DNA of 64,000 nucleotides. Origin: a virus. How positions within the stretch are numbered: position 1 is the stretch's first letter; every line of letters begins with the position of its first letter. The notes below the pieces were generated by a model, which worked only from the letters and a program-made list of their open reading frames with translations, did no database searches and was not told where the DNA came from. Shown here piece after piece: positions 784-18,715 of this stretch. The position numbers and the translations under genes were made by a program. The stretch is taken from the IMG/VR virus record IMGVR_UViG_3300021960_000046, positions 22,740 to 86,739 of that record; one strand, given 5' to 3'.

Positions 784-1890
784 TCATCTTATAATATCAA
801 TATTACTATCTTTAGTCCATATCTCTAAATCATTTCGAATACGACCTTCTTCTTTTAACTTGTTATATCTTTTTGTGGCTAGTTTTCTCCACCATGAAAC
901 AATGTTATCTACATTGTATTTATCATAGTTTTCAGCCTTCTTTATTTCATCTGTTTTACCATTTACTATATCAACAAAGTTTTCAATACCATAATTTGAA
1001 ACATAATATCTTTTTTGTTCTGTTAAGTTCTTTGCGTTTGCAATAGTCACATCAAAGTTTTTACGGTCATCACCATCTAGTGCTTTCTTTACTAGACCAA
1101 TAATACCTGTAGTCATTTTAAGTTTACGACTTGACGCACCTTCTTTTACAAGTTGTCCTTTGCCAATAATATCCTCAACATAGTCTACCATATCTAAGTA
1201 AGGTTTACCATGCAACATAGGAATAAAATCTGACATTGTATTGCCTTTGTATCTTAGAAACGGTTTCATACCGTCATACATTGAGGCACCTTTTGTATTA
1301 CCATAGAGTGATGTAGTTTCAAACATTACCAAGTTCATATCATATTTTTTGTTTAATCGTTCTCTAACAAAGTGTGAACAACATACCCCAGCAAGAAGTT
1401 TACCACCGAGGTAATTATAACCAAAGGGCTGGCAAGGAACAATAACAAAACCCATAATTGCTGTCTTATTGAAAGTTGTGAGGTTTGGTACACTTCCCAA
1501 TAAATCATTTCTTGGTTTACAATTAATAACTGGACTCCCAAAACGCATAAAGCCCACAAACTTATTAGTATTATTTTCTTTAACTGCAAGTTTCAATGCC
1601 TTTCCTGGAATACTGACCATATTACTATGACTTGAAATCATATTAATACAGGTGTCCCATGTGTAGTTATCTAATTCAACAACTTCTAAATCCATGTCCT
1701 CTGGTGACATAGTAAAGTCACTAAACATCTCGGAATCTAAACCCATACCAGGCAAAGATGTAGGCAGACTATCAATCTGTGCCATCTTTTGGTCACGCAT
1801 GTACTGGTCTATTCTTTCAAACTGACCAAAATAGTCGTTGAAGATAGCTGCGACATGTTGTGCTTGTTCTTTACTTAGGGTCTTCGCCAT
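784..1890 (-). CDS. DUF4338 (DruA-like), putative Mom-like GNAT-fold protein, copy 1
   Basis: VP.QP.GYN..GGKLLA and ETTSLYG...S.Y motifs; paralog of 17375..18679. Confidence 0.65.
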   Translation of the reverse strand: MAKTLSKEQAQHVAAIFNDYFGQFERIDQYMRDQKMAQIDSLPTSLPGMGLDSEMFSDFTMSPEDMDLEVVELDNYTWDTCINMISSHSNMVSIPGKALKLAVKENNTNKFVGFMRFGSPVINCKPRNDLLGSVPNLTTFNKTAIMGFVIVPCQPFGYNYLGGKLLAGVCCSHFVRERLNKKYDMNLVMFETTSLYGNTKGASMYDGMKPFLRYKGNTMSDFIPMLHGKPYLDMVDYVEDIIGKGQLVKEGASSRKLKMTTGIIGLVKKALDGDDRKNFDVTIANAKNLTEQKRYYVSNYGIENFVDIVNGKTDEIKKAENYDKYNVDNIVSWWRKLATKRYNKLKEEGRIRNDLEIWTKDSNIDIIR

Positions 1891-1963
1891 TCCACATCCA
1901 TAATAATAAAACTGGTATCAATAATATAACTATACTACAAAATATACTAAATGTCAAGCTCAT
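1871..1963 (-). CDS. putative 30-aa single-pass membrane microprotein (MSLTFSIFCSIVILLIPVLLLWMWNGEDPK)
   Basis: Translated by hand; ATG overlaps the gp43 stop (ATGA); long hydrophobic stretch; below the ORF track cut-off. Confidence 0.45.
   Translation of the reverse strand: MSLTFSIFCSIVILLIPVLLLWMWNGEDPK
1929..1957 (-). promoter_or_regulatory. sigma70-type early promoter for DUF4338 copy 1
   Basis: TTGACA-N17-TATAGT on minus strand. Confidence 0.7.
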
Positions 1964-4446
1964 CCGAAGAAAGCCTCCAGACTTGCCTGTGGTTCTGCTT
2001 TCCAACCAATTGCGTCTAAGATAAATCGCATAGGGTCTAAGAAAGTCTTATCAAACATAACATCATAGTCTATGTATTGTTGTAGATTAAACTCGGTTGG
2101 TAGTGTACTAATATAACTGATAACATCAAACTTAAACGGATTGGCTTCTTTGAGTTTTAGAAACTTAATCTTGTCGCCTTCTTGTATCATAGGATACTTG
2201 TTATGTAATTTGAAATTATCAATCTGATGATTATATATCAAAGCACCTTTCACATGAATTGGTGTACCTTTGATGAATATGTTACTACTACTGGTATACT
2301 TTTTAAGATTGTTACAACTTCTAGGAAAAGCAATTGCTTCTGCCGGTAGTTTGAAAAATTCTGTTCTAAAGTCTGCAATAAATTTATGTAGGTCTGTTTG
2401 TTCTTTACCCATAATAATTTTAATTGCTTCTTTAATCTTACCTCTACAAACTTGTGGTGTTGAAGACTTAACGGCTTCGATACCCATAAGTTTAAGTTTA
2501 GGTTCTGCAAGTCTAACACCTTCTTCATCAAGTACATTTAGCATGTATCTCTTCTTTGCAATCCAGATACCTTTGTTGGCAATTACTTCTCGTTTCATTA
2601 CCATGGCATTTTTAAATGCATTAGAATAATCTGCTAGTTCATCAAAACATTTTTCAATATATGGTTCAATCTTTTGTTCACAAACTTTATTTAAGAAGTC
2701 AACAATCTGGTCATTTGTTTTACCTTTGCATGTTACTTCAACTAATTTTTCTAATCGAACATAGATACTATCTGTATCAGACGCCACAATATAATCTTCG
2801 TTATCTGTATTCAATACTTTGTTTAAATAATCATTTACTTTTTTTTCAATGAAACGAATAATAAACTGACCAGCAGTTGTAATACCAGCAGCCTGTCTTA
2901 CATCATAATACCTGAAGTATTGATTACCAACTGCACCATAAGCTGAGTTCAATGCAATCTTTCTTGCCCATTGAATATTATGGCACCTTGCAATCTCTTT
3001 AACTAATTCTGGATTCTTAGTTCTTTGATATTGTTCTTTTGCCTTCAACATTCGTTTCTTATAAATCACTCGTTCTTTATACATGGTCTCCATCATTTCA
3101 GATAGAAACCCTTGGCTGTCTCTCATAAACAATGCACCGTTAGGTGTAATTGTTGCGTTCTTTTCTTTTAAGAAATCTAAATTAATTTCTCTATTCAACA
3201 TCTTCTCAACACCAACGGCTGAATGATGAGAACCAATCAGTTTTTCTGGTGAGATGTTGTATTGAATAAGAATATGTGGATAAAGAGAGTTGATATCAAA
3301 TGAAACCATCCACTTGTGTTGGCCTGGTATAGGGTCTTTTACATAAGCGCCTTCATACTTTTCATTCTTAATGTGGTCTTCTCTTGGTGGTATGCAAATA
3401 TTCTTCTTCATCAAATAGTTTGCAATCAAAGTATCCCACACTCGCACTTGTGAAAAGATATCATCATAGTTAACTTTGGATTCATATGCAACGGTCAATG
3501 CCAGTTCAATCAAACCTAGTTTGTCTTCTAGTTTGTCAACAATCTCCACATCTTGTATGTTGTAATCTACAAACCTTTGAAAGTCTTTCTCATAAAATTC
3601 TTTGAATGTGCCATAAGGGTTATCGTTCTTGTTTTCATCTAGTTCTATTTCACCAATGAAATCTAGTTTATAACTTTCTTGCCTTGTTGGAATAAACCAC
3701 TTATACAAGTCAAGGTAATCTAACATAACGGTACCAAACAAAGTATAAACTCTTTGTGGTCGACCTTGTACATGAATTACTGCATTGTCAATCAATCCCC
3801 AAGGTGACATCTTTTCAATGACCTTTTGACCTGCAACAAGTTTAATTCTTTCCATCAAATATGGTAAGTCAAAAAACTTGGTATTCCAGCCTGTGATAAT
3901 ATCAGGATGATTTTTCATCCAAAACTTCACAAACTCAAACATCAATTCTTTTTCACTCTTACATTTAATATAAGTTACATCTGTTCTATCTGTATGATAA
4001 TCGCCTACACCCCATGTAATGATGTGTTTGTTTGTTTGATTTTTTACCGTAATACATAACAACTCTTCAACTGGATTTTCTACATCTGGAAAACCATTTT
4101 CACAAGTAGTCTCAATGTCTAGTGTAAAAATTTTAATTAGTTTTTTATCCCATTCAATCTCTTGTGGGAATTCTTGGCCAATATACTGATAATGAAACCT
4201 CTCTAAACCATAGACAGGTGTATTCATCTCAGACCTCTCTTTACGATATCGTCTGGCATCCATAATATTATCAAATGTTATTGGTTGTAGATACTGACCT
4301 TGTAGGTTTTTGTAAGGAGATTTAGATGATGTTAGAGAATAGAAAGTTGGCATAAAGTCCAACTTCTCTTTGTATTCTTTACCGCCGTGTATACCACGGA
4401 CTAATAGTTTTCCTCTGTGTTCGATAACATTTTTATAAAAGTTCAT
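1960..4446 (-). CDS. gp43: family B DNA polymerase (T4 gp43-like)
   Basis: Exonuclease DIET motif; polymerase motifs SFDINSLYP, KIALNSAYG, ASDTDS. Confidence 0.98.
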   Translation of the reverse strand: MNFYKNVIEHRGKLLVRGIHGGKEYKEKLDFMPTFYSLTSSKSPYKNLQGQYLQPITFDNIMDARRYRKERSEMNTPVYGLERFHYQYIGQEFPQEIEWDKKLIKIFTLDIETTCENGFPDVENPVEELLCITVKNQTNKHIITWGVGDYHTDRTDVTYIKCKSEKELMFEFVKFWMKNHPDIITGWNTKFFDLPYLMERIKLVAGQKVIEKMSPWGLIDNAVIHVQGRPQRVYTLFGTVMLDYLDLYKWFIPTRQESYKLDFIGEIELDENKNDNPYGTFKEFYEKDFQRFVDYNIQDVEIVDKLEDKLGLIELALTVAYESKVNYDDIFSQVRVWDTLIANYLMKKNICIPPREDHIKNEKYEGAYVKDPIPGQHKWMVSFDINSLYPHILIQYNISPEKLIGSHHSAVGVEKMLNREINLDFLKEKNATITPNGALFMRDSQGFLSEMMETMYKERVIYKKRMLKAKEQYQRTKNPELVKEIARCHNIQWARKIALNSAYGAVGNQYFRYYDVRQAAGITTAGQFIIRFIEKKVNDYLNKVLNTDNEDYIVASDTDSIYVRLEKLVEVTCKGKTNDQIVDFLNKVCEQKIEPYIEKCFDELADYSNAFKNAMVMKREVIANKGIWIAKKRYMLNVLDEEGVRLAEPKLKLMGIEAVKSSTPQVCRGKIKEAIKIIMGKEQTDLHKFIADFRTEFFKLPAEAIAFPRSCNNLKKYTSSSNIFIKGTPIHVKGALIYNHQIDNFKLHNKYPMIQEGDKIKFLKLKEANPFKFDVISYISTLPTEFNLQQYIDYDVMFDKTFLDPMRFILDAIGWKAEPQASLEAFFG

Positions 4447-4771
4447 TGTTCCTCAAATATGCAATTAAGCCATCATGTTTAGGTTCTAGTTCGATTTGAC
4501 AGGACAACCTACTGAGTCCTGGTTTATAGTCTTTTTCGTATTCTAATAAGTCAATTTCAGGACTATTATAAGCCATTTCATCTAATTTGTCAAGCCACCT
4601 TTCATCAATATACACATGACAAGTACCACACGCACAACAACCACCACAGGTGGCTGGTATTTCTTCGATAGGAACAGGTGAATGAAACTTGGCAGCCTCC
4701 ATAAGAGTAGTACCTACAGGCACTTCAACTCTTATCTTGGAGCCGTCTCTGACAAAATATACCGTAACCAT
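4433..4771 (-). CDS. fdx: [2Fe-2S] ferredoxin, adrenodoxin/ISC type
   Basis: CGGCCACGTCHV and SRLSCQI motifs. Confidence 0.92.
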   Translation of the reverse strand: MVTVYFVRDGSKIRVEVPVGTTLMEAAKFHSPVPIEEIPATCGGCCACGTCHVYIDERWLDKLDEMAYNSPEIDLLEYEKDYKPGLSRLSCQIELEPKHDGLIAYLRNNELL

Positions 4772-4772
4772 T

Positions 4773-5099
4773 TTAAAGTTTTGGTAGTTTTGCTTCTGTT
4801 ATGAATTTACTTTCTTGAGCTGACGGTTGTAAAATACCTGAGGTATTTTCTTCGTAGTTCTTTTTGATATCTGATTTAGGATTAATCATTGTGATAACTT
4901 TATCAATCATCACTTTAACTTCGCCGTCATCTGTATAAGGTTGCCATGGTGACAACATCAACTGAATTGGTTGTCCTGGTGCCATCTGTCTTGGAATTAA
5001 GACAAACGATTTTTTTAATACAATGTGGTCAGCATATTCATCAATATCACCGATTACATCTTCGCCTGTTGTTAGACGAATAATTTTAACATTCTTCAT
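4773..5099 (-). CDS. conserved T4-like phage hypothetical protein (Sm-like fold likely)
   Basis: VKIIRLTTGEDVIG N-terminus; AAGGAG RBS favours the ATG at 5099. Confidence 0.65.
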   Translation of the reverse strand: MKNVKIIRLTTGEDVIGDIDEYADHIVLKKSFVLIPRQMAPGQPIQLMLSPWQPYTDDGEVKVMIDKVITMINPKSDIKKNYEENTSGILQPSAQESKFITEAKLPKL

Positions 5100-5118
5100 A
5101 TTCACTCCTTGTTATCAT

Positions 5119-5147
5119 AATATAACACAACTAATTCAATTAGTCAA
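5119..5147 (-). promoter_or_regulatory. sigma70-type promoter upstream of hypothetical-fdx-gp43
   Basis: TTGACT-N17-TATATT. Confidence 0.6.
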
Positions 5148-6528
5148 TGCTGTATTTGGTTGTTATTACATATTTTCTTTGAGGGTTAACCATTACATTT
5201 AATTTGTTCATAAATGCACGGTCAAATAGAATAAGACTTCTCTCATCTCTATCGTCCAAAGTAAATTCTACATCTTTATAGAGACCGCCTGCAAACTCCA
5301 CATCAAGTTTGATAACATATCTGGTCTCATCATAATCTCTTAAGCCGCCTACTGATATGTCTTCTTTACGAATAATGTTTGAGGTTATAGTCTTACCCAA
5401 AAGAGTCCATCTAATTTGTTTACCATCCACCTTATACTTATCAGCGTGTATAACTGGCATGCCTGAATTACCAGTATCAAACTTAGCAACGATTTCCCCA
5501 AAAGGTTTAATTGTGACCACTTCTTTATAGCCACACTCCGTTGGTGTTTTATACCGGTTATTTTTATCAGCAAAGTAGTTGATAACAATGTTAGATATAT
5601 TAAGTTTAGTCGCATCCTCAATTCCCTCAGTACCAGGTGATGAATTCACCTCTAACATAAACGGCGGTTCTTTCTCCCTATTTTTACTAGGTATGAAATC
5701 AACTGCCGACCAATGTCCGTTTACTGCCTTAGCAGCTCTTAGACTTTCTTCAATTTCTAATTCTGTAAGTTCTATCTTTTCTGGTACAGAACCTTGTGAT
5801 ACATTTGACCTGAAGTCGCCTTCAATAACTGGTCGTTTCATAGCTGCAATTACTTTGCCACCTAAAATATGTACCCTTACATCATAATCTGTTTTAATAT
5901 ATTGTTGTGCTAATAAATCTGTGTCTTCATCTTGTTTATGAATTAATTGTACAATACTATCTAAACCTTTTTCTGTATCAACAAATAATACACCAACACC
6001 TTTAGAACCTCTAAGTGTTTTTAGAATAATAGGAAACTTTAAACCAGCTTCTTCAACTAGTTCTACTGATTTTTCGGGGTCATTGATAAGAATAGTTTTA
6101 GGTTCTGTTAAACCATAATCTGCAAGTCTTAATGAAGTTCTATACTTGTCTGCACAAATATTAATACTTTGTCTGTTGTTTACACAACATACATTGGCTC
6201 TTTCTAAGATAGACACAAAGTCCATCCAACTATCTTTTCTGACAACACTACCACGAATGATTGCAACGGTATCACTATCAATTTCAAAACCTTTTTTATC
6301 ATCTTGGTTATGAAATCTACGAACACCGTCCTCGTAAGTAGTATAACCGCCAGTAAGTTTAAAAAGATAGTGTGGATATTTTAACTTATCACACTCTTCT
6401 CTAAGTCTATCAGCAGTATGAAATTCTTTTGCCTTTTCTGGTTCATCTGTAATGATGAGCAGACGCAAGAATTTTTCTTTATCTACTTTAGCTTCTGTTA
6501 AATAGTCTTTAAATTTTGGTACTTGCAT
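5140..6528 (-). CDS. rimK: RimK-like ATP-grasp ligase fused to a C-terminal retropepsin-like (RimB-type) protease
   Basis: ADKY, PIILK..GSKGVGV, DVRV, FRSNVSQG, LEVNSSPG motifs; C-terminal AKFDTGN protease motif. Confidence 0.85.
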   Translation of the reverse strand: MQVPKFKDYLTEAKVDKEKFLRLLIITDEPEKAKEFHTADRLREECDKLKYPHYLFKLTGGYTTYEDGVRRFHNQDDKKGFEIDSDTVAIIRGSVVRKDSWMDFVSILERANVCCVNNRQSINICADKYRTSLRLADYGLTEPKTILINDPEKSVELVEEAGLKFPIILKTLRGSKGVGVLFVDTEKGLDSIVQLIHKQDEDTDLLAQQYIKTDYDVRVHILGGKVIAAMKRPVIEGDFRSNVSQGSVPEKIELTELEIEESLRAAKAVNGHWSAVDFIPSKNREKEPPFMLEVNSSPGTEGIEDATKLNISNIVINYFADKNNRYKTPTECGYKEVVTIKPFGEIVAKFDTGNSGMPVIHADKYKVDGKQIRWTLLGKTITSNIIRKEDISVGGLRDYDETRYVIKLDVEFAGGLYKDVEFTLDDRDERSLILFDRAFMNKLNVMVNPQRKYVITTKYSID

Positions 6529-6963
6529 TTACTTGCCATCTGTTTCACTTTCGCCAGGTTTTTTACCTATATTATATTTAGCTGTCAAGTTCCAGTCATT
6601 TTTTTCTTTATAAGGTAAAACCTTTATCTGGCTTAGTGGTGCTTTGTTGTCAACACTATCCTTTTTAACGATATCAATTAAGTTCCAATCTTGTAATAGT
6701 AGCGCAATTGTATTTCTTCTTTGAATATCATTTTCAACCAAAGTAGATTTCTTACCATCTAAAGCAAATAACTCTTTAAAATGGGTAATATAATACTTAC
6801 CTTGTTTGTGTAAAATATGACAAGATTGATATAGGGTTTTGTCTTTACGACTTGCAACACCTATTCTCGTCAAGGTCTCTCTAACCTTTAGAAAATCATC
6901 TGGTTGTTTGATTGTTACCTCAAGCATATCTGCCTGAGACCATTTTATAATCTCTTCACTCAT
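6529..6963 (-). CDS. regA: translational repressor RegA
   Basis: DDFLKVRETLTRIGVAS...LYQSCHILHKQGKYYITHFKELF. Confidence 0.97.
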   Translation of the reverse strand: MSEEIIKWSQADMLEVTIKQPDDFLKVRETLTRIGVASRKDKTLYQSCHILHKQGKYYITHFKELFALDGKKSTLVENDIQRRNTIALLLQDWNLIDIVKKDSVDNKAPLSQIKVLPYKEKNDWNLTAKYNIGKKPGESETDGK

Positions 6964-7355
6964 TTTTTTCTCCCACCCTTTTCCAAGGACTTTTTAATTA
7001 GTTCCAATTGTTCATCATTTAGTATGGTTAGAGCTTCTTTTGCTTTTTCATTACTATAGCCATAATACTCTTTCACATACTCCATGTCTTTAATCTTCGA
7101 TTGTGATAACCATTTACCACCAAATCGCTTTTTCTTACGGATACTATTTATATAAAAGTCAAATTGTACTTTTTTGTCAAGGAAGTGGAAGCCATTCATC
7201 TCATTGGCTTGTGCTATACAATCGTAATGCATTGACAGGCAACGATTGATAATGTAAGGAGAATATTTTTTCTCCCACATAATATCATCACTATCTAATA
7301 GTTTTTCTTTAGATGTATTGATAGCGTTTAGATAATCTTTTAGTTCATAACTCAT
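6960..7355 (-). CDS. gp62: clamp loader small subunit (gp62)
   Basis: YSPYIINRCLS, VKEYYGYSNEKA motifs; synteny gp45-gp44-gp62-regA. Confidence 0.93.
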   Translation of the reverse strand: MSYELKDYLNAINTSKEKLLDSDDIMWEKKYSPYIINRCLSMHYDCIAQANEMNGFHFLDKKVQFDFYINSIRKKKRFGGKWLSQSKIKDMEYVKEYYGYSNEKAKEALTILNDEQLELIKKSLEKGGRKK

Positions 7356-7371
7356 AATATATTAACCTCAA

Positions 7372-7447
7372 TGGTGCCCTCTGACGGAATTGAACCGCCA
7401 ACCTACTGATTACAAATCAGTTGCTCTACCAATTGAGCTAAGAGGGC
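7372..7447 (-). tRNA. tRNA-Thr(UGU), canonical, CCA encoded
   Basis: GCCCTCT acceptor stem, D-loop with GG, anticodon arm ACTGA-TTTGTAA-TCAGT, T-loop TTCAATT, ACCA end. Confidence 0.95.
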
Positions 7448-7452
7448 AAATT

Positions 7453-7527
7453 TGGAGCGGGTGACAGGATTCGCACCTGCGACATTTTCGTTGGCAACGA
7501 AATGCTCTACTCCTGAGCTACACCCGC
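7453..7527 (-). tRNA. tRNA-Gly(GCC), atypical D and T loops
   Basis: GCGGGTG/CACCCGC-TCCA acceptor, anticodon arm TTTCG-TTGCCAA-CGAAA, T-loop TGCGAAT. Confidence 0.9.
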
Positions 7528-7533
7528 TTATAC

Positions 7534-8478
7534 TCATTTAAATTTACAACTCGCCATAATCTCAGTTAGACAAGCAATTAAGTTAATTTCCTGGTCGGCA
7601 ACAAAGGCAGCCTTGTATTGATAACCAGCGACAATTAATATCATCTGAGGTACAGACGAAGCCTCTAACGCATTGGTTAGAACATCATATACACCTCTGA
7701 ATAAAGAAGATGGTTCTTTGTCTAAGTTCTGAACAACCCATTTACGCATATCATTAAATCGTTTCTCTTTTAAAGAAGCGACCAACTCTTTGTTATTGGC
7801 TTCAGATAAACTAAACAAAATACCACTATCAATTTTACCCCTTACAGAATATCTTTGTAGTTCATTTATAGTTCTACGAAAGTCTGGATAGTATTTCTGA
7901 ATTAACTCAGCCAATACTTTAGGGTCATATTCAACCTCTTCTTTCTTTAGAATGTCCTGTAATCTAGTTAGAAGTTGTTTGGCAGTTTTTACTTTCTGGC
8001 CATTAACAATTCTAAAATCAATTACGGTACATCTACTATGTAGAGGTTCAATGATTTTGTTTTTGAAATTACAAGTAAAGATAAATCTACAATTCTTGTA
8101 AAATGTTTCGATAAAATTACGCAAAGCAGGTTGTACGGACTCGGCATTCATATAGTCTGCCTCATCAATAATAACTACTTTGTGGTTTGCCTCTGCCGTT
8201 AGAGAAACGGTTGAAGCAAAGTTCTTAATCTTGTGTCGTAGTGTATCAATTTGACGGCCTTCATCTGAACCGTTAATGATAATATAATCTACGCCTAGTT
8301 GTTCACATAAAGCACGAGCAACGGTAGTCTTACCAGTACCTTGTGTACCTGATAATAGTAAATTTGGTAACTCGCCTTGTTTTAGAAAACTTTTGAAAGT
8401 CTCTTTAGTATCTTCAGCTAAAATACAATCATCAATTGTCTTTGGCCGATACTTTTCTACCCATAAATGGTCTGACAT
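7534..8478 (-). CDS. gp44: clamp loader large subunit (gp44)
   Basis: WVEKYRP, Walker A GTQGTGKT, IIDEAD, PLHSRC. Confidence 0.97.
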   Translation of the reverse strand: MSDHLWVEKYRPKTIDDCILAEDTKETFKSFLKQGELPNLLLSGTQGTGKTTVARALCEQLGVDYIIINGSDEGRQIDTLRHKIKNFASTVSLTAEANHKVVIIDEADYMNAESVQPALRNFIETFYKNCRFIFTCNFKNKIIEPLHSRCTVIDFRIVNGQKVKTAKQLLTRLQDILKKEEVEYDPKVLAELIQKYYPDFRRTINELQRYSVRGKIDSGILFSLSEANNKELVASLKEKRFNDMRKWVVQNLDKEPSSLFRGVYDVLTNALEASSVPQMILIVAGYQYKAAFVADQEINLIACLTEIMASCKFK

Positions 8479-8500
8479 TTTTTCCTCACTTGTTTCATAA

Positions 8501-10052: not shown

Positions 10053-10126
10053 TGGAGCGGATGAGTGGTACTGCCCCACTTTCATTTGATTGGAAATCAA
10101 ATATAATACTTTTATACGACATCCGC
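10053..10126 (-). tRNA. tRNA-Gly(UCC), strongly atypical D and T loops
   Basis: GCGGATG/CATCCGC-TCCA acceptor, anticodon arm TTTGA-TTTCCAA-TCAAA; D-loop lacks GG; T-loop GGCAGTA. Confidence 0.82.
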
Positions 10127-10133
10127 ATTATTC

Positions 10134-10162
10134 AATATACACTAGATGGCCGTCTTTGTCAA
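10134..10162 (-). promoter_or_regulatory. sigma70-type promoter for tRNA-Gly(UCC)/gp45, embedded in an inverted repeat
   Basis: TTGACA-N17-TATATT; predicted start at or just before the tRNA 5' end. Confidence 0.7.
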
Positions 10163-10180
10163 GCCTAGGACGGCCATCTA
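10143..10180. terminator. 12-bp inverted repeat (terminator-like hairpin)
   Basis: TAGATGGCCGTC...GACGGCCATCTA directly after the 10191 ORF. Confidence 0.55.
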
Positions 10181-10190
10181 ATTTTACTTC

Positions 10191-10430
10191 TTAGTCTTTC
10201 TTAGTTACAAATGAATATAACTCAGCAGCCTGTTTCATCACCTCGGTTGGTGAATACATTTTAGGCAAATACTTTTCAGTATATTCAGTTATATCTTTGT
10301 TTGCTTCTTTTACTTTGTTTAGATTTTCATAAAAGATACCAACTTGTGTATCATATGCTTTATCTAACATTTCTTTAGCCATTGCTAAAGTATCGAAACG
10401 AATTTCGAATGGGTTTTTTCCACTTGACAT
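10191..10430 (-). CDS. conserved hypothetical phage protein
   Basis: KNPFEIRF..L.MAK motif; AAAGGAGA RBS supports the ATG at 10430 over 10499. Confidence 0.7.
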   Translation of the reverse strand: MSSGKNPFEIRFDTLAMAKEMLDKAYDTQVGIFYENLNKVKEANKDITEYTEKYLPKMYSPTEVMKQAAELYSFVTKKD

Positions 10431-11011: not shown

Positions 11012-11015
11012 CATT

Positions 11016-11023
11016 TATTTATA
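11016..11023 (-). promoter_or_regulatory. T4-type late promoter upstream of hsp20
   Basis: TATAAATA. Confidence 0.7.
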
Positions 11024-11035
11024 TAGGTATTCATT

Positions 11036-11269: not shown

Positions 11270-11280
11270 ATCCTCATATA

Positions 11281-11635
11281 AGTGGTAGTTTCGGTTTAGG
11301 GTCTTAAACTACCAAAGAGAGCCGCAGCTTTAGTTTGGAGATTATAGAGGTGAAACTAAGCGCAAATGCTAAAACCCCTCTGTATCTGGTAGTGGTAGGC
11401 CTCACCCACTTTTACCCTAGTATCTACTTAAAGACACATTTCCCGAGGTCACGCTAGCGACCTTTTACGGCTACGAAGGCCAATGGACCAGATAAGGTGG
11501 TAGTTTTGATAAAGCAGACTACCAACTGCTGACTATTCGGATTGAACCGAGGCGTCACCCCTTCCATCGCTGGAGGTCTTACGAATTGCCTCCACATACT
11601 ATTTATTACACTTCACGGCACAGCAGATGGAACGA
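11281..11635 (-). ncRNA. candidate large structured non-coding RNA (class unassigned)
   Basis: GC-enriched ~350 nt with no long ORF; many helices, a multibranch junction, a T-loop-like hairpin and potential pseudoknots; strand inferred from G-U pairs and context. Confidence 0.65.
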
Positions 11636-11643
11636 AATCTCTA

Positions 11644-11847
11644 TTATTTCATTCTTTCAAGTTTAGCTAATCGCTTTTTAGTATTTTTAATACCTTGCTT
11701 CTTAGCCTCTCTACGAATTTCTGAAGGTTTCATATAGTATTGTCTATCTCTAATTTCTTTGATAAGACCCTCTTTCTGAACCTTTCTTTTAAGAACACGC
11801 ATAGCCTGTTCTAAATTGCCATTTCTTACTTTTATTTCTATCGCCAA
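11644..11847 (-). CDS. rpsU: ribosomal protein bS21
   Basis: I.VRNGNLEQAMRVLKRK...G...E...RQYYMKPSE.RR; TTG start. Confidence 0.93.
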   Translation of the reverse strand: MAIEIKVRNGNLEQAMRVLKRKVQKEGLIKEIRDRQYYMKPSEIRREAKKQGIKNTKKRLAKLERMK

Positions 11848-11875
11848 ATTATACTTTAACCTTTCTTGTCCTTTT

Positions 11876-11912
11876 CAAAAAAGTGGTGGTAGGGACACTA
11901 CCCCCTACCACC
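11876..11912 (-). terminator. rho-independent terminator after the cobS-like gene
   Basis: GGTGGTAGGG/CCCTACCACC 10-bp stem followed by a T tract on the minus strand. Confidence 0.75.
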
Positions 11913-11954
11913 GTTTCGAAAGGACACTCTTCGCTTAATGCGAAGAATTGAGTA

Positions 11955-13151
11955 TTAGATAACCTCTTGGTCATCTGAGGACTCCTCCTCACTCATTTGG
12001 GAAGCAATATCAGATTGTCTTTGCTGTTCTGCTATCTGCTCAGCAGTAGCACCAGCGTCAACTTTCTGGTATAGTTCCATAAATGAATTCTTTGTATCAT
12101 CATCAAATCTGTTTGTACACACTTCAATAGCTTTCATTTTGTTATTGAAGATAGCAAACGCTTGAATGATATGTACTAACCTTCTGGTTGAAATAATCTC
12201 ATCAACACCACCATCAAAGTAGGTTTTTCTGATTACATCAGCCCAAGTTACCAACTTATTACAAAAGTCTTTGTCTTTTTTACCAGACTTTTCTAAAGTA
12301 TTGATAAGGATTTTCTCCTCAACCTTAGCAGTTGGATACTTTTGTTCAAAGGTAATTGGAAATCTTTCCAAGAACGCCTCGTTCAATACATTAGTACCGA
12401 TAAACTTACCATCATCACTACCTTGACCTTTTGTATTGGCAGTAGCAATGACATTGAAACCATCAGCAGGTTTCACAAACTTGTTAATCTTTTTAACAAA
12501 GACACCAGAGCCTTCTAAGATTGGTTGTAAACACATAATCTTATTAGACGCAAGGTCAATCTCATCAAGTAACAAGACAGCGCCTCTTTCCATGGCTTCG
12601 ATAACAGGACCATTTTGCCATACGGTCTGACCGTCTTTAAGTCTGTAACCACCTAAAAGGTCGTCTTCATCTGTCTCAATGGTAATGTTAACCCTAATAA
12701 GTTCTCTCTTATTCTCGGCACAAGCCTGAGTAACACCCATTGTCTTACCATTACCAGACAAACCAGTAATGAAGATTGGATAAAACATTCCAGATTTAAC
12801 AATCTGTTTAACATCTGGATAGTTACCAAATGAAACGAATACTGGATCCTTTTTAGGAACAATATCGCCTGTTAGTGAAGACACAACATAAGCCGCCTCA
12901 TAATTTTTTTGACTTTCTGGTGCCAAAATCTTTTCAGCAACCGGAGTAGTCTCACCAACTCCTTCACCATCAACTGGTAGTTTGAACATAGACTTACCAA
13001 TTTTGTAGTCTGAGTTCTTAATCAACCATTGAGGTGCATATTTACAGCCAAACTTTTTGTTGGCTTCTTTAAGTTGTTGAACCGTTAACTCGGCAGTACC
13101 GAATTTTTGAACGGCATAATCAACAAACTCTTTTTGTTTAGTATTTAACAT
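11955..13151 (-). CDS. cobS: CobS-like/MoxR-family AAA+ ATPase
   Basis: Walker A GLSGNGKT, Walker B LLLDEID, ATANTKG.G, VLNEAFLERF. Confidence 0.9.
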   Translation of the reverse strand: MLNTKQKEFVDYAVQKFGTAELTVQQLKEANKKFGCKYAPQWLIKNSDYKIGKSMFKLPVDGEGVGETTPVAEKILAPESQKNYEAAYVVSSLTGDIVPKKDPVFVSFGNYPDVKQIVKSGMFYPIFITGLSGNGKTMGVTQACAENKRELIRVNITIETDEDDLLGGYRLKDGQTVWQNGPVIEAMERGAVLLLDEIDLASNKIMCLQPILEGSGVFVKKINKFVKPADGFNVIATANTKGQGSDDGKFIGTNVLNEAFLERFPITFEQKYPTAKVEEKILINTLEKSGKKDKDFCNKLVTWADVIRKTYFDGGVDEIISTRRLVHIIQAFAIFNNKMKAIEVCTNRFDDDTKNSFMELYQKVDAGATAEQIAEQQRQSDIASQMSEEESSDDQEVI

Positions 13152-13198
13152 AGTGTATGTCCTTTCATATTTAAGTTAATTTCTCACTTTATGGGTCC

Positions 13199-13227
13199 AT
13201 CCTACAGGAGTTTCCTGAAAATGGCAA
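13199..13227 (-). promoter_or_regulatory. early promoter with A-tract UP element
   Basis: TTGCCA-N17-TAGGAT; CCTGTAGGATGGAC shared with the promoter at 15586. Confidence 0.65.
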
Positions 13228-13297
13228 CCATTATTTTCACTTTTTTTCAACTTTTTTTTCGTTGCCAGGTGTGACTTTCCAAGGTGCGACATCCTGT

Positions 13298-15556
13298 CTA
13301 TGCAACCTCCGCTATAAATTTGTTTAAAATCACTCTGGAAACCAATCTATTTTGCATTGCTTTACCAAACATTCTCTTAAACTCACCAACGGTTTCTTTT
13401 TTAATTTCAGTATCAGACATATCAAAGTTCTCAACTTTAAGTCTTTTACCATCTAGTAAAAAGTATTTGTTATAACCAGGTTTGTCAACAGCAATGGCCT
13501 TGTTTTTGGTCATTTCTTTTCTGGCTAATTCAGTTTTTCTACTTCTTTCCATATAGTCTTTGCCTTCCATATACTTCTCAATATCCCACCTTTTAACTCT
13601 TTTAAGGATAAAGAAACCAAGTATGTTACAATCATATTTGTTTTTAATCATGGTCAACAACTTGTCTGTTAAATCATAGTAACTATCTAATACAATCTTA
13701 TTTTTACCACTTTGCAACACGGCTGTTTTATCATAATCAACCACACTTGATTTGTACCATTCATCACTACCAATCTCTGCTGGGTTATACATTTGCTTTC
13801 TAAAGCTGTTTGCCCCACCATCTGTTAAGGTAATAAAGGTCATTTTCTCAATACCATATTTGTCTTTGAACATTGGTATCAATTCATTACAAAACACCAA
13901 CGCTTCGTTAAGTGGTGTATTACCTAAGTACAATGCATTAGGAACACCAAAACTATTGTATCTAGCCATTCTTAAATCACTATCAAAATCTTTTTGATAA
14001 CAATAATTAGCATTGTAATATTGTGCCATGTGGTACATATACATACCTGCTAATTCAAATTCTTTCTTAGTCATTCTGTGACTAAAGCAATTAACTAGAT
14101 TGAAGTTCTCAAACGACCAATCACCTTCTTTGTAGTTAAATGACTTTTCTTGTTTATCACTTCTCTCACTAGTAAAGAAATAAACTTCAAAAGGAATATT
14201 TACTTTTCTAACAAACTCTACAAGGTTAAGTAATTGCTCAACGGTATTCATTAGAGTATCACTCATAGAACCAGACCAATCAAGTAACATCATCATACCG
14301 TGGTTTTTACCATCAGGTATAATAGTCAATTTCTTAAAGATATCATCTGAGTATTTGTAACTAGGTAGTTTTAAAGGGTCAATAATACCTGTCTTATCTG
14401 TTTGTGCTCTCTTGTAAGCAGTAGCAGCTTTCTTCATCTCAAACTCTTTAACAAGATACATAACCGTTTTCTTGTTTTCTTTTTGAAACTTTTTAAATGT
14501 ATCTTTTAACCATGACATATATGGCACATCTTCATAATTGTATGCTCTATGTCTAATTCTTTCTTCTTGCATTAATTGAAGAAACTTTTTGTAAGTAAAG
14601 ATAGATTTAAGATTTGCTTTTGGTATAGAACCGTAAGTGAAACCTTTTGTCTTACTATCAAGTAGTTCTGATTTCTTTTCTTCGTAAGCTTGGTCAGTTA
14701 CAGCTTTTAAAAGTTTGTTAGATGGTGTGCCATCTGAACCTTTACCGTATTGACCAGGTTCACCAGTTTTTTCTTCTTTATTTTCTGTTTTTTCTTCTTG
14801 TGTACTAGATGAATTTTCATTAGCAGGTTTTTCATCATCTGCTTTTTCATCACCAAAGTTATTGAAATCATTTTTTTCATCTGATTGGTCGTTATCATCA
14901 GCACTATCAAACTCATCTTCAAAGTCATCTTCATTACCAAGTTCATAAGTTTTAACAATAGATAACTCATCAAAGTTAGGAAGTTTTTGCATTTCCTCAA
15001 CTTGTTCTTTCTGCCATGCTAACATCTCTTTAGCAAGTGAAAGTACATCATCAAAGGTAGTCACTTGGTCAACTTTAGCCAACCAGTTATTATCTTGGTC
15101 GTTAAATGAAAAAGGTAGTCTGTTAAGTGATTTACTTCTTAGATTAATCTTGTCGATAATCATTAAGTCTGTATTGATATCTTTACCATAAAGACCAAAG
15201 AAGTTCTTTTTTTCTAAGATATCAAAACCGTTTAGGTAGTTTTTAACTACACCAGGATATTTTGCTTGAATTAATTTGTCAATTCTTGTGTCTTCGATAA
15301 CATTGACATATGACCTTAGTTCTTGGTCAGTAATGCCTTCCCATTCTTCATAAGGTGTATATAATGCGTGTGAACATTCGTGTGCTATAAGCATGTCATA
15401 GACATCACCAGATTGTTCTTTGAAAATTGGTAGGGTTAGAATTCTGTTTTTGACATCAAAAGAAGCAGTCGCAACTTTGTCGTGTCTAACGGTAATATTT
15501 TCGTTTGCTAGAAGTTTAGCGAGATTACTCTTAACTTCTAAATTTATAGTGTTCAT
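13298..15556 (-). CDS. CobT-like protein: HExxH metallopeptidase domain, acidic linker, vWA domain
   Basis: AHECSH...NVIEDTRI; MIDAS LDWSGSM, GNTPL, LTDG; adjacent to the AAA ATPase; start may be 15556 or 15577. Confidence 0.85.
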   Translation of the reverse strand: MNTINLEVKSNLAKLLANENITVRHDKVATASFDVKNRILTLPIFKEQSGDVYDMLIAHECSHALYTPYEEWEGITDQELRSYVNVIEDTRIDKLIQAKYPGVVKNYLNGFDILEKKNFFGLYGKDINTDLMIIDKINLRSKSLNRLPFSFNDQDNNWLAKVDQVTTFDDVLSLAKEMLAWQKEQVEEMQKLPNFDELSIVKTYELGNEDDFEDEFDSADDNDQSDEKNDFNNFGDEKADDEKPANENSSSTQEEKTENKEEKTGEPGQYGKGSDGTPSNKLLKAVTDQAYEEKKSELLDSKTKGFTYGSIPKANLKSIFTYKKFLQLMQEERIRHRAYNYEDVPYMSWLKDTFKKFQKENKKTVMYLVKEFEMKKAATAYKRAQTDKTGIIDPLKLPSYKYSDDIFKKLTIIPDGKNHGMMMLLDWSGSMSDTLMNTVEQLLNLVEFVRKVNIPFEVYFFTSERSDKQEKSFNYKEGDWSFENFNLVNCFSHRMTKKEFELAGMYMYHMAQYYNANYCYQKDFDSDLRMARYNSFGVPNALYLGNTPLNEALVFCNELIPMFKDKYGIEKMTFITLTDGGANSFRKQMYNPAEIGSDEWYKSSVVDYDKTAVLQSGKNKIVLDSYYDLTDKLLTMIKNKYDCNILGFFILKRVKRWDIEKYMEGKDYMERSRKTELARKEMTKNKAIAVDKPGYNKYFLLDGKRLKVENFDMSDTEIKKETVGEFKRMFGKAMQNRLVSRVILNKFIAEVA

Positions 15557-15585
15557 ATTAGTGTCCTTTTTCATCATATGTGTCC

Positions 15586-15614
15586 ATCCTACAGGCCTTT
15601 TCCATATAAGTCAA
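15586..15614 (-). promoter_or_regulatory. early promoter with A-tract UP element
   Basis: TTGACT-N17-TAGGAT with long upstream A tracts. Confidence 0.7.
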
Positions 15615-15648
15615 GCGTTTTTGTGATTTTTTTTTAATTTTTTTTCAA

Positions 15649-15675
15649 CAAAAAACCCTTATAGGACAAGGGTTT
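15649..15675 (-). terminator. rho-independent terminator closing the DUF4338-GIY-YIG-MazG-NTase unit
   Basis: AAACCCTT-N7-AAGGGTTT running into a T tract. Confidence 0.55.
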
Positions 15676-15699
15676 ATGTAGCTGCGTCAAATCGCACAG

Positions 15700-16479
15700 C
15701 TAATTTATTGTATTTTTTCGCTCAATATCGTCTTCCGAGCAGTCCGTTCCATACTGGATTTCGATAATTTTAAGTGGTATATGTTCTTCATTACATAACT
15801 GGTGCCATTCACCTCTCTCTATATGTAAGTTATCAAACATTTTATACTCACCTAGTAGTTCTAAATCTGTGTTACTATTGATTGTATAGACGGTGGCCAC
15901 ACCTTTACTGATAAACCAATGTTCTGACCTATCTTTATGTTTTTGCATAGATAGTCTTTCGCCAGGCATTACAACTAATTCTTTTACTTTAACTACATTG
16001 AGTTCATTATGTATAACTCTATAATATCCCCACGGTCTTTCGGTCTGGTTTGTAGCCCATTTCTCTAAAATGCTTGATGAGGAGTTACGCTTCTCCGTAC
16101 CTCCTACACCAAAAGCAAAGGTAATCCAGTCATCTGATTGGAAATACTTCTCTTCAGGTATGTTCTCGGCAGTTCTATCACCACCATTGGCAAAGATAAT
16201 GTGTGCTTTAGGGTAAAATCTTTTGACTTTTAGAATACACTCAATGGCCGTACCGTCCCAATCATCAAACGGTATTACATTGTGTACAAACGATAGGTTT
16301 TCTACAACCTTTTCTCGTTCATAGAAAGGCATAAAGTATTTGCCTTTCTTTTCTTTTAACCAATTGTCTGAGTTAAGTCCTACAATCAAATGGTCGCCTA
16401 AGGCGGCGGCACATTTCAGGTACTCTATATGTCCTGAATGTAAAGGGTCAAAACCGCCAGTTGCAATGACTACTTTCAT
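15700..16479 (-). CDS. cytidylyltransferase-like (HxGH) domain fused to a mannose-6-phosphate isomerase type II cupin
   Basis: TGGFDPLHSGH, FANGGDR, NSSS; then RPWGYY, LSMQKH..RSEHW, IIEIQYG..CSEDDIER. Confidence 0.88.
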   Translation of the reverse strand: MKVVIATGGFDPLHSGHIEYLKCAAALGDHLIVGLNSDNWLKEKKGKYFMPFYEREKVVENLSFVHNVIPFDDWDGTAIECILKVKRFYPKAHIIFANGGDRTAENIPEEKYFQSDDWITFAFGVGGTEKRNSSSSILEKWATNQTERPWGYYRVIHNELNVVKVKELVVMPGERLSMQKHKDRSEHWFISKGVATVYTINSNTDLELLGEYKMFDNLHIERGEWHQLCNEEHIPLKIIEIQYGTDCSEDDIERKNTIN

Positions 16480-16799
16480 CTATTGTCACCATTGCCACCG
16501 ATAACACCTCGGTTCATTCGGTCTTGTAATTTAACTATATTGTTGTCAGCAATAGTTTGGAGGTCGCAGCCAATATCATCAGCCAATACAGCGATATACC
16601 ACAGGCAATCGCCAATTTCAGCGGATATCTCTTTACGATAATCTTTATTCTTCTCATATCCATCTCTTATTAATTTTTTAACTTTGTTCGCCACTTCGCC
16701 TGCTTCACCGGCAAGTCCTAACGCTGGATATAAAATCTGGTGTTTCTTGTCGTAGATAGCCGTTGTCTTGGCCATTTCTTGGTACTCATTGAAATTCAT
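16476..16799 (-). CDS. mazG: MazG-like nucleotide pyrophosphohydrolase
   Basis: LGLAGEAGEV...KK..RD...EIGD.LWY. Confidence 0.9.
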   Translation of the reverse strand: MNFNEYQEMAKTTAIYDKKHQILYPALGLAGEAGEVANKVKKLIRDGYEKNKDYRKEISAEIGDCLWYIAVLADDIGCDLQTIADNNIVKLQDRMNRGVIGGNGDNR

Positions 16800-16811
16800 T
16801 TCTATTTAGTC

Positions 16812-17375
16812 CTAATTTGTTTTATACACATAACCCTCAGAAAGACCTAATTCTTTCCATGTACGATTACTTTCTTGTATATTTAAATCCGGATACACGC
16901 CATTGATTTTGTGGTATTCATCAACAAACTCTTTCTCTACCGTGTGAAAATCAATAGGTATCTCCTTCTTGTATTTCTTACCATTGAATGTTGGTATCTC
17001 TACTTCAACAATCGGCAGTAGTAAAAAATAGACTTCTAACCTATTACCAGCAAGCAATTCTTGTTTCATATACTTACAGATTGCATAATTTCTCATACTC
17101 TCTGTCTTGCCAATATCGCCTCTGAAATAAGCCGAGATGGTCGCTTCGATACCGCCTTTGTCTTGCGAGCCACCAATCTTTACTATTTTACTATTGTTAG
17201 TTAAAATGTAAAGTCTTCCTCTTGGATTCTTTCTGTATTCTTTTAAACAAGTGGTGTTTAATGATAACTTATTGTCGTTAAGGAATATCTCACCTAGTTT
17301 GACCCATTGAGATAAATCTAAACCATCAATAGAAGTTACTTCTTTGTAACCTAGCATTTCAGCTATCTTGTTCAT
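16812..17375 (-). CDS. GIY-YIG endonuclease (Hpy188I / T4 EndoII-like)
   Basis: GRLYIL...KIVKIGGS variant of the GIY-YIG hairpin; S.RNY, LEVY, VEKEF..EY...NG.YP.LNIQ C-terminal pattern. Confidence 0.65.
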   Translation of the reverse strand: MNKIAEMLGYKEVTSIDGLDLSQWVKLGEIFLNDNKLSLNTTCLKEYRKNPRGRLYILTNNSKIVKIGGSQDKGGIEATISAYFRGDIGKTESMRNYAICKYMKQELLAGNRLEVYFLLLPIVEVEIPTFNGKKYKKEIPIDFHTVEKEFVDEYHKINGVYPDLNIQESNRTWKELGLSEGYVYKTN

Positions 17376-18679
17376 TATCTTCCTACTTGCGACAGATACT
17401 TAGATTTACATTCTTCCCAACTCATATAGATAATATCATCATAGAAATGGCTTTCGGTTGAAACTCTATCTTGTTTCTTTAAAGACGCCAATCTCTTCTT
17501 AGCGTATTTGTTTTTCCATATCTCTGTTAATGCTTCTACTGAATTGTCAAACTTTCTAACTAACTTGTCTTCTTTAATTTCTTCTCTTAAAAATTCGTTT
17601 GTGTTATTAAATAATTCACCAAAGTAAATACCTCTAGCGTGTTCTGATTTAATTAACTTTTTATCAATACCTAATTTGTTATAGGTAAATGTTAAACTTC
17701 TATTTCTATGGTCTCTTTTATGAGGTTGACCACTATCTTTCTTTGCAACATACCATTCAAAGAATTTATATGTGTGGTTTTTCATCAACCATTGTTGAAT
17801 AAGTTTCTGTGTTGGTTTTTCTGGTTCAAATGAAACTGAACCTGCTGTCCAACCCATTTTCTTCCAACCAAATAATCTATCGTATTGTGATAATGGTATT
17901 TCTTTTGTCTTACCATATAGTGATGTTGTTGTAACACCCACAAGTTTATCTTTGTATTGTGCTTCCCAAGTTTTCTCTACCGTATCTGATAAACATAATA
18001 GAGCAAGTAGTTTACCACCTACTAGATTATAACCTAATGGTTGAATAGGTACAATCGTACTACCAATACAAGTATGATTAATCATTCGTTGAGTTTTAGC
18101 TTCTCGTTCCCAACCAATGTGTTTATCTCTTGGTGTTAAATCTAAGAAGTCTGAGGACATACAAGTTACACCAAGAAATTTGCCTGTCTTCTTATCTCTA
18201 ATTAAAAAGTTTAGATTTCTACCAATGTTACTATTGTTTTTCATTGTAGAAAGGAAAGTTCTTAGACCATTCCAAACGGCAGGACCTTGTGCGTTAGTAG
18301 CCTTAGATAATGTTTCGTTAGTGTCTGTGTAAACTAACTCAGGTTCTAAATCAATATATTCTTCGGGGTCTTCTGGCAACCAGAAGTTATTTTTAATCTC
18401 TTGTAGTAATTGACCTTGTGCTGGGTCTTTTAATGTTTTGCCTGTATCATCAAAAAAACTATTAGTTTCAACCGTAGGATATTTGTGTTGTACTTCACAC
18501 CATTTCTGATACAAAGTATATTCTTTTACATCCATAGCAGAAACAAAGGTCAAGTCTTTAATAACTTGCGCCTTTAATTTTTCTGTATCTACATCTGGCA
18601 CTTTGTCTAATGGATTGTTATCTGACCAACTTTGCCATTGGTCGTCAATCGACATGCCTTTTTTCCACGAATAACTCAT
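17375..18679 (-). CDS. DUF4338 (DruA-like), putative Mom-like GNAT-fold protein, copy 2
   Basis: GRNL.FLIRD..TGKFLG, PRD..IGW, VPIQPLGYN..GGKLLA, TTTSLYG...SQY.RL..WK..G.T.G. Confidence 0.7.
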   Translation of the reverse strand: MSYSWKKGMSIDDQWQSWSDNNPLDKVPDVDTEKLKAQVIKDLTFVSAMDVKEYTLYQKWCEVQHKYPTVETNSFFDDTGKTLKDPAQGQLLQEIKNNFWLPEDPEEYIDLEPELVYTDTNETLSKATNAQGPAVWNGLRTFLSTMKNNSNIGRNLNFLIRDKKTGKFLGVTCMSSDFLDLTPRDKHIGWEREAKTQRMINHTCIGSTIVPIQPLGYNLVGGKLLALLCLSDTVEKTWEAQYKDKLVGVTTTSLYGKTKEIPLSQYDRLFGWKKMGWTAGSVSFEPEKPTQKLIQQWLMKNHTYKFFEWYVAKKDSGQPHKRDHRNRSLTFTYNKLGIDKKLIKSEHARGIYFGELFNNTNEFLREEIKEDKLVRKFDNSVEALTEIWKNKYAKKRLASLKKQDRVSTESHFYDDIIYMSWEECKSKYLSQVGR

Positions 18680-18686
18680 AATGTAT

Positions 18687-18715
18687 ATCCTAAACTAAAA
18701 TTCTTAAAATGTCAA
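18687..18715 (-). promoter_or_regulatory. sigma70-type early promoter giving a near-leaderless mRNA for DUF4338 copy 2
   Basis: TTGACA-N17-TAGGAT; 7 nt separate the -10 box from the ATG. Confidence 0.7.

Follow-up and report, generated by a model that had tools for sequence, protein, structure and literature searches.

DUF4338/DruA-family genes replace N6-adenine methyltransferase genes in three genomic slots of marine T4-like phages

Mom of phage Mu (PF25680; PDB 8bv8) is a phage-encoded GNAT. According to PMC13219725, it transfers glycine from Gly-tRNA(Gly) to the N6 of adenine in double-stranded DNA, and the discussion there states that it does not need a dedicated tRNA. DruA belongs to the Pfam family PF14236, formerly called DUF4338, and is part of the type I Druantia defence system, whose defining feature is a single operon that encodes both DruA and DruB-DruE (a large helicase). 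Among nucleases, the restriction enzyme Hpy188I is paired with a methylase, and T4 endonuclease II (EndoII, denA) is paired with the hydroxymethyl-cytosine pathway. Here we describe two DUF4338/DruA-family genes (copy 1 and copy 2), a GIY-YIG nuclease gene and two atypical tRNA-Gly genes in a 64,000-nt stretch (the window; positions 22,740 to 86,739 of the IMG/VR virus record IMGVR_UViG_3300021960_000046). It represents the replication module of a pelagimyophage of the T4-like kind that is related to Mosig and HTVC008M.

A comparison with related phages revealed three genomic slots of marine T4-like phages in which DUF4338 stands in place of N6-adenine methyltransferases. These slot replacements and the distribution of the tRNA genes are what is new here. 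A sequence-only reading of the same stretch had interpreted its genes as a candidate single three-part system, in which Mom-like glycyl transferases are fed by two translation-excluded phage tRNA-Gly and the nuclease serves as the restriction arm.

DUF4338 genes in adenine methylase slots

Copies 1 and 2 are paralogs with 37% identity across 136 amino acids (aa; BLASTP, E 2e-19). Both open reading frames (ORFs) exist, and the common motifs from which two diverged paralogs had been proposed fall inside the BLASTP-aligned block. In a search of the genome, PF14236 matched copy 2 at 72.2 bits and copy 1 at 27.2 bits. Both proteins also matched phrog_19197 (copy 1 at 3.6e-146) and the PADLOC DruA models, and copy 1 retains 4/4 invariant columns of alignment A1. 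Orthologs of copy 1 with 84% identity are present at loci L010, L020 and L024. Copy 2 is very common in marine data, with 4306 proteins at E<=1e-3 among 7576 candidates, and the DUF4338 family is diverse (942 representatives at E<=1e-3). The window paralogs therefore share the Pfam and PADLOC family of Druantia DruA. In contrast to that protein, they are encoded by a phage rather than in a defence island, they have phage replication genes as neighbours and they have no DruB-E partners. A Pfam scan of the 24 neighbouring ORFs, all T4-type replication or auxiliary genes, revealed no DruE-like helicase, and an operon of the type I Druantia kind is not present here.

Slot A lies between gp44 and gp62. 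A DUF4338 gene is found directly upstream of gp62 in S-SM2, S-SSM7, S-CAM9 and S-SCSM2R; that of S-B68 is located near gp46/47 and not in this slot. The slot holds a D12-class N6-adenine DNA methyltransferase in all three DUF4338-free cyanophages checked (S-RIM8, S-PM2 and S-RIM2). No homolog of the S-RIM8 D12 enzyme (Dam) was detected in 4/5 DUF4338-bearing cyanophages, and the fifth has merely a 25%-identity match elsewhere. Slot B lies between gp43 and uvsX, and here DUF4338 copy 1 follows gp43 both in the window and in HTVC008M; its earlier placement next to the DNA polymerase gene was thus correct. HTVC008M has two DUF4338 genes and no methylase hit. In Mosig, which has one DUF4338 gene, the gene after gp43 is an MT-A70. 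A DUF4338-free sister lineage (gp45 ~57% identical) has a small GNAT-like gene in slot B, followed by MT-A70. Slot C lies upstream of the nuclease gene. In the sister lineage, a homolog with 46% identity to the window nuclease has its start overlapped by MT-A70, and copy 2 holds the same position in the window. Profile searches of the whole 86.7-kb record gave zero matches to the MT-A70, D12 or N6_N4 methylases or to the Mom family (PF25680).

The small GNAT-like gene of the sister lineage encodes 178 aa and is located between gp43 and MT-A70 (L102 2960-3496; L053 17257-17793), with a match to Acetyltransf_1 at E 0.002. It was ruled out as a DUF4338 relative by hhalign profile comparison (probability 3%).

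DUF4338 genes thus have three gene slots in common with the Dam (D12) and MT-A70 methylases of T4-like phages, including the position upstream of the nuclease. In contrast to these S-adenosylmethionine-dependent methylases, DUF4338 proteins would act by GNAT acyl transfer, with an unrelated fold and chemistry. The occupation of methylase slots, together with the joining of one copy to a nuclease gene, suggests that DUF4338 enzymes probably mark phage DNA chemically. Their most likely activity would be to attach an acyl or aminoacyl group to the phage's own DNA once it has been replicated, with adenine as the probable target, and they would give the protection that related phages obtain from Dam or MT-A70 methylases. 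The DNA-modification role proposed earlier is supported by the replacement of methylases in three slots, from which we infer that DNA is the substrate.

A point against this interpretation is that gaps between replisome genes are hot spots for accessory genes in general, so the replacement could reflect an insertion preference rather than a shared function. The acylation target of DUF4338 might then be not DNA but, for example, a polyamine, a nucleotide or a protein of the host or phage, and the slots would only be places that accept accessory genes. The module does contain many unrelated accessory genes (2-oxoglutarate (2OG) oxygenases, MazG, Hsp20, S21 and an ATP-grasp enzyme), and a small GNAT-like gene stands beside MT-A70 in the DUF4338-free lineage. 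However, what DUF4338 replaces is an adenine DNA methylase at each of three different slots, 4/5 DUF4338-bearing genomes have no cyanophage Dam, and one nuclease family is coupled to either MT-A70 or DUF4338. We therefore consider a non-DNA target unlikely.

To compare folds, we used a structure model of DUF4338 built from a 76-sequence alignment (pLDDT, the predicted local distance difference test, 93.9; predicted template-modelling score (pTM) 0.91). The leading Foldseek rows were all GNATs, with Mom (8bv8_A) at rank 8 (E 0.076). The model thus indicates that DUF4338 has a GNAT fold, as the structure comparison suggested by the sequence-only reading had been expected to reveal. In a structural ranking Mom was nominally first, with the next rows at 9.2 and 8.8, which is within the tie margin of the tool. 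Structures of Fem-type enzymes and L/F-transferases were not among the high-ranking matches (FemA, rank 46). As for published links, we found one passage that terms DUF4338 a GNAT domain and no paper that contains both 'DruA' and 'GNAT'. A GenBank record labels a cyanophage DUF4338 homolog 'methylcarbamoylase mom'.

Several results weigh against a special relationship with Mom. Foldseek gave zero matches at E<=1e-3 for the DUF4338 model, and Mom exceeded ordinary acetyl-CoA GNATs by just 0.9 Z in the structural ranking. The Mom profile PF25680 had zero hits at E<=1 for either paralog, hhalign of DUF4338 against Mom gave a probability of 0.9%, meaning that sequence homology was undetected, and the DUF4338 profile found nothing among PDB sequences. 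Searches with copy 2, its profile and the nuclease against the sequences of solved structures likewise revealed nothing useful. Since Mom is the best structural match yet within the tie margin, and has no sequence link to DUF4338, the predicted relationship is only a lead. The motif-level link to Mom made earlier thus has this structural lead, a nominal top match, and no sequence support. The use of Gly-tRNA(Gly) by Mom, cited in the sequence-only reading, is in print (PMC13219725).

Mom and the DUF4338 proteins are both phage-encoded, with a GNAT core in common (predicted for DUF4338), and they would probably share an anti-restriction role on DNA adenine, to which the replacement of adenine methylases points in the case of DUF4338. 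In contrast to Mom, the DUF4338 proteins have double the size and helical parts at both the N and the C terminus, and their genes stand among replisome genes with early promoter-like sites, whereas mom is a late gene.

The nuclease coupled to copy 2

No match of the nuclease to Pfam GIY-YIG was obtained at E<=1. Its predicted fold, however, matched Hpy188I (3oqg_A; Foldseek E 2.2e-7, probability 1.00) and T4 EndoII (2wsh; E 4.5e-6 to 1.2e-5, TM 0.64-0.70) with high significance. These matches indicate that the nuclease is, by its modelled fold, a GIY-YIG enzyme of the Hpy188I/EndoII branch, the branch named in the sequence-only reading. Tyr56, Lys66 and Arg95 are conserved in a 9-sequence alignment. 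The one-base overlap with copy 2 described earlier is present, with TAATG joining the stop of copy 2 to the start of the nuclease ORF. In contrast to Hpy188I, which is paired with a methylase, the window nuclease is paired with a GNAT.

The nuclease is rare: a search of 5.8 billion proteins returned 7 at E<=1e-3, itself included. A scan with the nuclease alignment gave 27 loci, and ORFs were listed for 19 of them, the other 8 having match statistics that duplicated a listed type; 41 neighbours from 11 loci were compared with Pfam and 14 with PHROGs. An adenine methylase adjoins the nuclease in 4/10 other distinct contexts, and these methylases belong to three families (MT-A70, N6_N4 and D12). 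The MT-A70 context was shown by Pfam in L053, and a like ORF layout is seen in L102, L104, L105, L109 and L110. In L101, the nuclease homolog is flanked on both sides by N6_N4-type genes, and in L123 and L125 a D12 methylase lies 78 and 3 nt downstream of it. Among the neighbours in further contexts are glycosyltransferases, an AAA ATPase, a carbamoyltransferase and small unknown genes. Although the nuclease moves between sites, it adjoins DNA-modifying genes far above the expectation from their rarity.

This mobility raises the alternative that the nuclease is a selfish, free-standing endonuclease gene that landed by chance behind copy 2 and has no functional tie to it. Its rarity relative to copy 2 and its occurrence in at least 10 different neighbourhoods would fit such a gene. 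Two observations favour this alternative and weigh against a modification-restriction pair: the nuclease is absent beside copy 2 in 5/5 relatives (L001, L002, L013, L033 and L040), and its nearest homolog in the viral collection (L099, 61% identity) is flanked by gp59 and a lysozyme gene and adjoins no modification gene. However, Pfam revealed in the nuclease neither NUMOD nor any other of the DNA-binding modules that Seg-type homing enzymes have, it shares its fold with the restriction enzyme Hpy188I and with EndoII, methylases of three families adjoin it in four of ten contexts, and its start overlaps an upstream modification gene in two unrelated contexts. A chance association appears rather unlikely on this evidence, though it is a real contender. 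The identification of the nuclease as a homing endonuclease alone was softened by the methylase neighbours. In L124 and L125, true Seg-like genes with NUMOD3 are found in the vicinity, as genes separate from the nuclease homologs there.

From the gene arrangement we infer a protective pairing, and the nuclease and copy 2 plausibly form a restriction-like pair in the window phage. Copy 2 would be translationally coupled to the Hpy188I/EndoII-type nuclease, the nuclease would cut host or competing-phage DNA that lacks the mark, and the two would act as a phage-borne modification-restriction unit. Our overall proposal, that DUF4338 GNATs modify phage DNA in the role of a methylase, that copy 2 and the nuclease form this unit and that the tRNA-Gly genes are separate from it, is a tentative one, which we rate a little short of an even chance.

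Atypical tRNA-Gly genes and their distribution

ARAGORN and Rfam together revealed three tRNA genes in the whole record, Thr(UGU), Gly(GCC) and Gly(UCC). The tRNA-Gly(UCC) gene was missed by ARAGORN; its Rfam match (RF00005, gathering score 29 bits) covers 10056-10126 and has the anticodon loop UUUCCAA. The identity elements for glycyl-tRNA synthetase (GlyRS) are G1-C72, C2-G71, G3-C70, U73, C35 and C36. Both tRNA-Gly retain all of these and an encoded CCA. Both also have an A18/G55 elbow, with TGC in the T-loop of the GCC tRNA and GGC in that of the UCC tRNA. The earlier description of two tRNA-Gly with intact GlyRS identity and odd elbows was thus accurate. For the GCC gene, A18 occurs with G55 in 4/4 distinct variants and G18 with U55 in 3/3 distinct canonical relatives. 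Homologs of the UCC gene are found upstream of gp45 in many relatives, some in tandem with the GCC gene. Among 13 distinct homologs, the UCC cloverleaf is 95.2% paired with compensatory change at 11 of 21 pairs, and this covariation was reached in 0/500 shuffles. Invariant in these homologs are G1-G4 and the bases with which they pair, U73, C35, C36 and the CCA end, and position 34 is U or A. The UCC-type T-loops, GGCAGTA or AGCGTTA, have no T54, U55 or A58 and retain G55 and C56.

The T-stem pairs are G49-U65, C50-G64 and A51-U63 in the GCC tRNA and A49-U65, G50-C64 and U51-A63 in the UCC tRNA. PMC7826273 lists G49-U65 and C50-G64, which the GCC tRNA keeps, as high-affinity pairs in proteogenic tRNA-Gly, and the 'damaged EF-Tu features' of the sequence-only reading were not confirmed. 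In the same paper, staphylococcal non-proteogenic tRNA-Gly, which serve as donors to FmhB, FemA and FemB, have TGC in place of TTC in the T-loop. The U55-to-G change, an altered D-loop and the GlyRS identity are common to these and the phage tRNAs. In contrast, the staphylococcal T-stem set for weak EF-Tu binding (A49-U65, U50-A64 and A51-U63) is not present in the phage tRNAs, which also have no known Fem-type partner and are distributed independently of the candidate transferase.

A clear relationship links the UCC gene to the canonical tRNA-Gly(UCC) that cyanophage S-SSM7 carries. A blastn search of the phage collection with the UCC tRNA matched Mosig only and did not show a link to T4 tRNA-Gly. 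The sole Rfam tRNA match in HTVC008M is of the atypical tRNA-Gly type, with the anticodon ACC, and Table 1 of a survey (PMC7029224) gives this phage 0 tRNAs. In Mosig, a GenBank coding sequence upstream of gp45, Mosig_000011 ('hypothetical protein'; L001 7774-7869), overlies an atypical tRNA-Gly(ACC) and is probably a mis-annotation of the tRNA site. The atypical tRNA-Gly lineage has been overlooked.

We examined whether the atypical tRNA-Gly genes accompany DUF4338. They were present in 0/5 DUF4338-bearing cyanophages, three of which have a canonical tRNA-Gly(UCC) and two none. A T-arm pattern scan of viral contigs gave at least 125 sites. Among the matches listed, 13 larger contigs had a hit; 12 of these contigs hold a true tRNA by covariance model, and DUF4338 was found in only 5/13. 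The L156 pattern match was rejected as a tRNA, having no R1 match. A T4-like contig of 141,393 nt (G019, 85% complete) carries an atypical tRNA-Gly(UCC), and a profile search of it revealed no DUF4338 (best E 0.21; window control 4.6e-159) and no Mom hit. Six further DUF4338-free fragments carry atypical tRNA-Gly, again among the matches listed, and the type is found in phages that differ in G+C content, whether or not they have DUF4338. In favour of a link, the sister lineage without DUF4338 has tRNA-Arg and tRNA-Leu and no tRNA-Gly in up to 109.6 kb. Finally, the tRNA genes of the window lie 7-10 kb from the enzyme genes. Atypical tRNA-Gly genes are thus distributed independently of DUF4338, contrary to the co-occurrence on which the tRNA part of the earlier reading depended.

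Two side observations concern these contigs. In G019 (L266 4151-7387), gp43 was matched in two tblastn pieces ~840 nt apart and may contain an intein, an intron or an inserted gene. A 42-kb contig (G025; L208 and L209; 11% complete) carries atypical tRNA-Gly with GCC and UCC anticodons ~1.1 kb apart; it is a fragment without DUF4338 and probably derives from a very large phage.

These distributions bear directly on the sequence-only model of glycyl transferases with their own tRNA supply. Mom does use Gly-tRNA(Gly) (PMC13219725), the TGC T-loop of the GCC tRNA recalls the staphylococcal non-proteogenic tRNA-Gly (PMC7826273), and GlyRS identity is invariant in the 13 UCC homologs while position 34 varies between U and A. 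The sole Rfam tRNA of HTVC008M being of the atypical type, and the DUF4338-free sister lineage having no tRNA-Gly, would also fit. However, atypical tRNA-Gly occur in G019 and the six other DUF4338-free fragments and in none of the five DUF4338-bearing cyanophages, the tRNA and enzyme genes are far apart, Mom itself needs no dedicated tRNA (in the discussion of PMC13219725) and the GCC tRNA keeps G49-U65 and C50-G64. The full model is accordingly very improbable, and the role of the tRNA-Gly genes as a dedicated donor supply is not supported. The absence of the nuclease beside copy 2 in all five relatives implies that the three components do not move together as a single unit, and the tRNA genes are unlinked to the enzyme genes. 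The single three-part system proposed earlier was thus not supported.

The explanation that we find somewhat probable is that the atypical tRNA-Gly serve translation or counter-defence, independently of DUF4338. They could supply Gly decoding in an AT-rich host, or their altered elbow could let them evade a tRNA-targeting nuclease or toxin of the host. This is consistent with their wide occurrence in viral contigs of differing G+C content, with and without DUF4338, and with the relationship of the UCC gene to a canonical tRNA-Gly. The joint change of A18 and G55 further suggests that the elbow contact is maintained. On the other hand, G55 removes a universal pseudouridine site, A58 is lost in the UCC type and the ACC anticodon of the HTVC008M and Mosig type is unusual for bacterial decoding. 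In our proposal, the two atypical tRNA-Gly would be part of a wider phage tRNA-Gly lineage that is not dedicated to the modification-restriction unit.

Genomic context and implications

The parent virus record has 86,739 nt and is estimated to be 47% complete. Its closest named genome is Pelagibacter phage Mosig, with 79% nucleotide identity across the polymerase gene. Every gene in 1-24,000 of the window is on the minus strand. T4-type replication genes (gp43 polymerase, RegA, gp62, gp44, gp45 and gp46/47) are interspersed with marine auxiliary genes for 2OG oxygenases, a RimK-type ATP-grasp enzyme, Hsp20, ribosomal protein S21, CobS/CobT-like proteins, MazG and peptide deformylase. The features discussed here are collected in Table 1.

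Table 1. Positions of the candidate modification, nuclease, tRNA and promoter-like features and of context genes in the window.
Feature	Position	Strand	Evidence and remarks
DUF4338/DruA-family GNAT paralog copy 1, 368 aa	784..1890	-	PF14236 27.3 bits (cut-off 27); directly downstream of DNA polymerase
DUF4338/DruA-family GNAT paralog copy 2, 434 aa	17375..18679	-	PF14236 E 6.4e-20, 71.9 bits; stop overlaps nuclease start (TAATG)
GIY-YIG nuclease, Hpy188I/T4 EndoII branch (by modelled fold), 187 aa	16812..17375	-	model pLDDT 87.8; phrog_1111 'endonuclease' 2.4e-7
tRNA-Gly(GCC), D-loop AGGAGTA (A18), T-loop TGCGAAT (G55), encoded CCA, between gp44 and gp62	7453..7527	-	ARAGORN; Rfam 66.5 bits
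Atypical tRNA-Gly(UCC), D-loop AAAAGTA, T-loop GGCAGTA, U73, encoded CCA, gp45 leader	10053..10126	-	Rfam 43.7 bits
Canonical tRNA-Thr(UGU)	7372..7447	-	ARAGORN; Rfam RF00005 75.7 bits
Sigma-70-like site TTGACA-N17-TATAGT, upstream of copy 1	1929..1957	-	consensus match only
Promoter-like site TTGACA-N17-TAGGAT, upstream of copy 2	18687..18715	-	consensus match only
Promoter-like site TTGACA-N17-TATATT, just upstream of tRNA-Gly(UCC) and gp45	10134..10162	-	within GC-rich inverted repeat
Family-B DNA polymerase gp43 (context gene)	1960..4446	-	PF00136 5.9e-27, PF03104 3.7e-23
RimK/glutathione-synthetase-like ATP-grasp enzyme within replication module	5140-6528	-	
Ribosomal protein S21 gene within replication module	11644-11847	-	

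As described earlier for the two paralogs, the gap upstream of each contains one TTGACA-N17 site, by consensus match. Such sites are modestly enriched in the window, which has 13 against 5.85 +/- 2.04 expected, a number reached in 1/100 shuffles. At 10127-10200 (minus strand), the -35 element lies inside a GC-rich inverted repeat, GATGGCCGTC ... GACGGCCATC, which may be the terminator of the upstream gene overlapping an early promoter. This repeat and promoter-like arrangement upstream of gp45 is kept in the relatives L002-L006 and L040. Downstream of copy 1, a 254-aa ORF (12-776, minus strand) has as its sole match a weak one to DUF6065 (E 1.7e-4), which is under the cut-off.

DruA/DUF4338 names a defence-system component whose function is not established in the papers that we found. 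There is a slender chance that the DruA-type GNATs of the abundant ocean T4-like phages aminoacylate adenines of freshly replicated DNA by way of Gly-tRNA, including the phages' own non-canonical tRNA-Gly, with the Mom-like mark licensing an EndoII-like nuclease to destroy DNA that does not bear it. Were it true that DruA GNATs aminoacylate DNA, it would also become clear what chemistry DruA performs in transposons and in Druantia defence. A protein family that stands in for a methylase at three slots, once together with a restriction-type nuclease, offers a concrete and cheaply testable hypothesis, and one that applies to cultured phages (HTVC008M and Mosig) of the most abundant marine bacteria.

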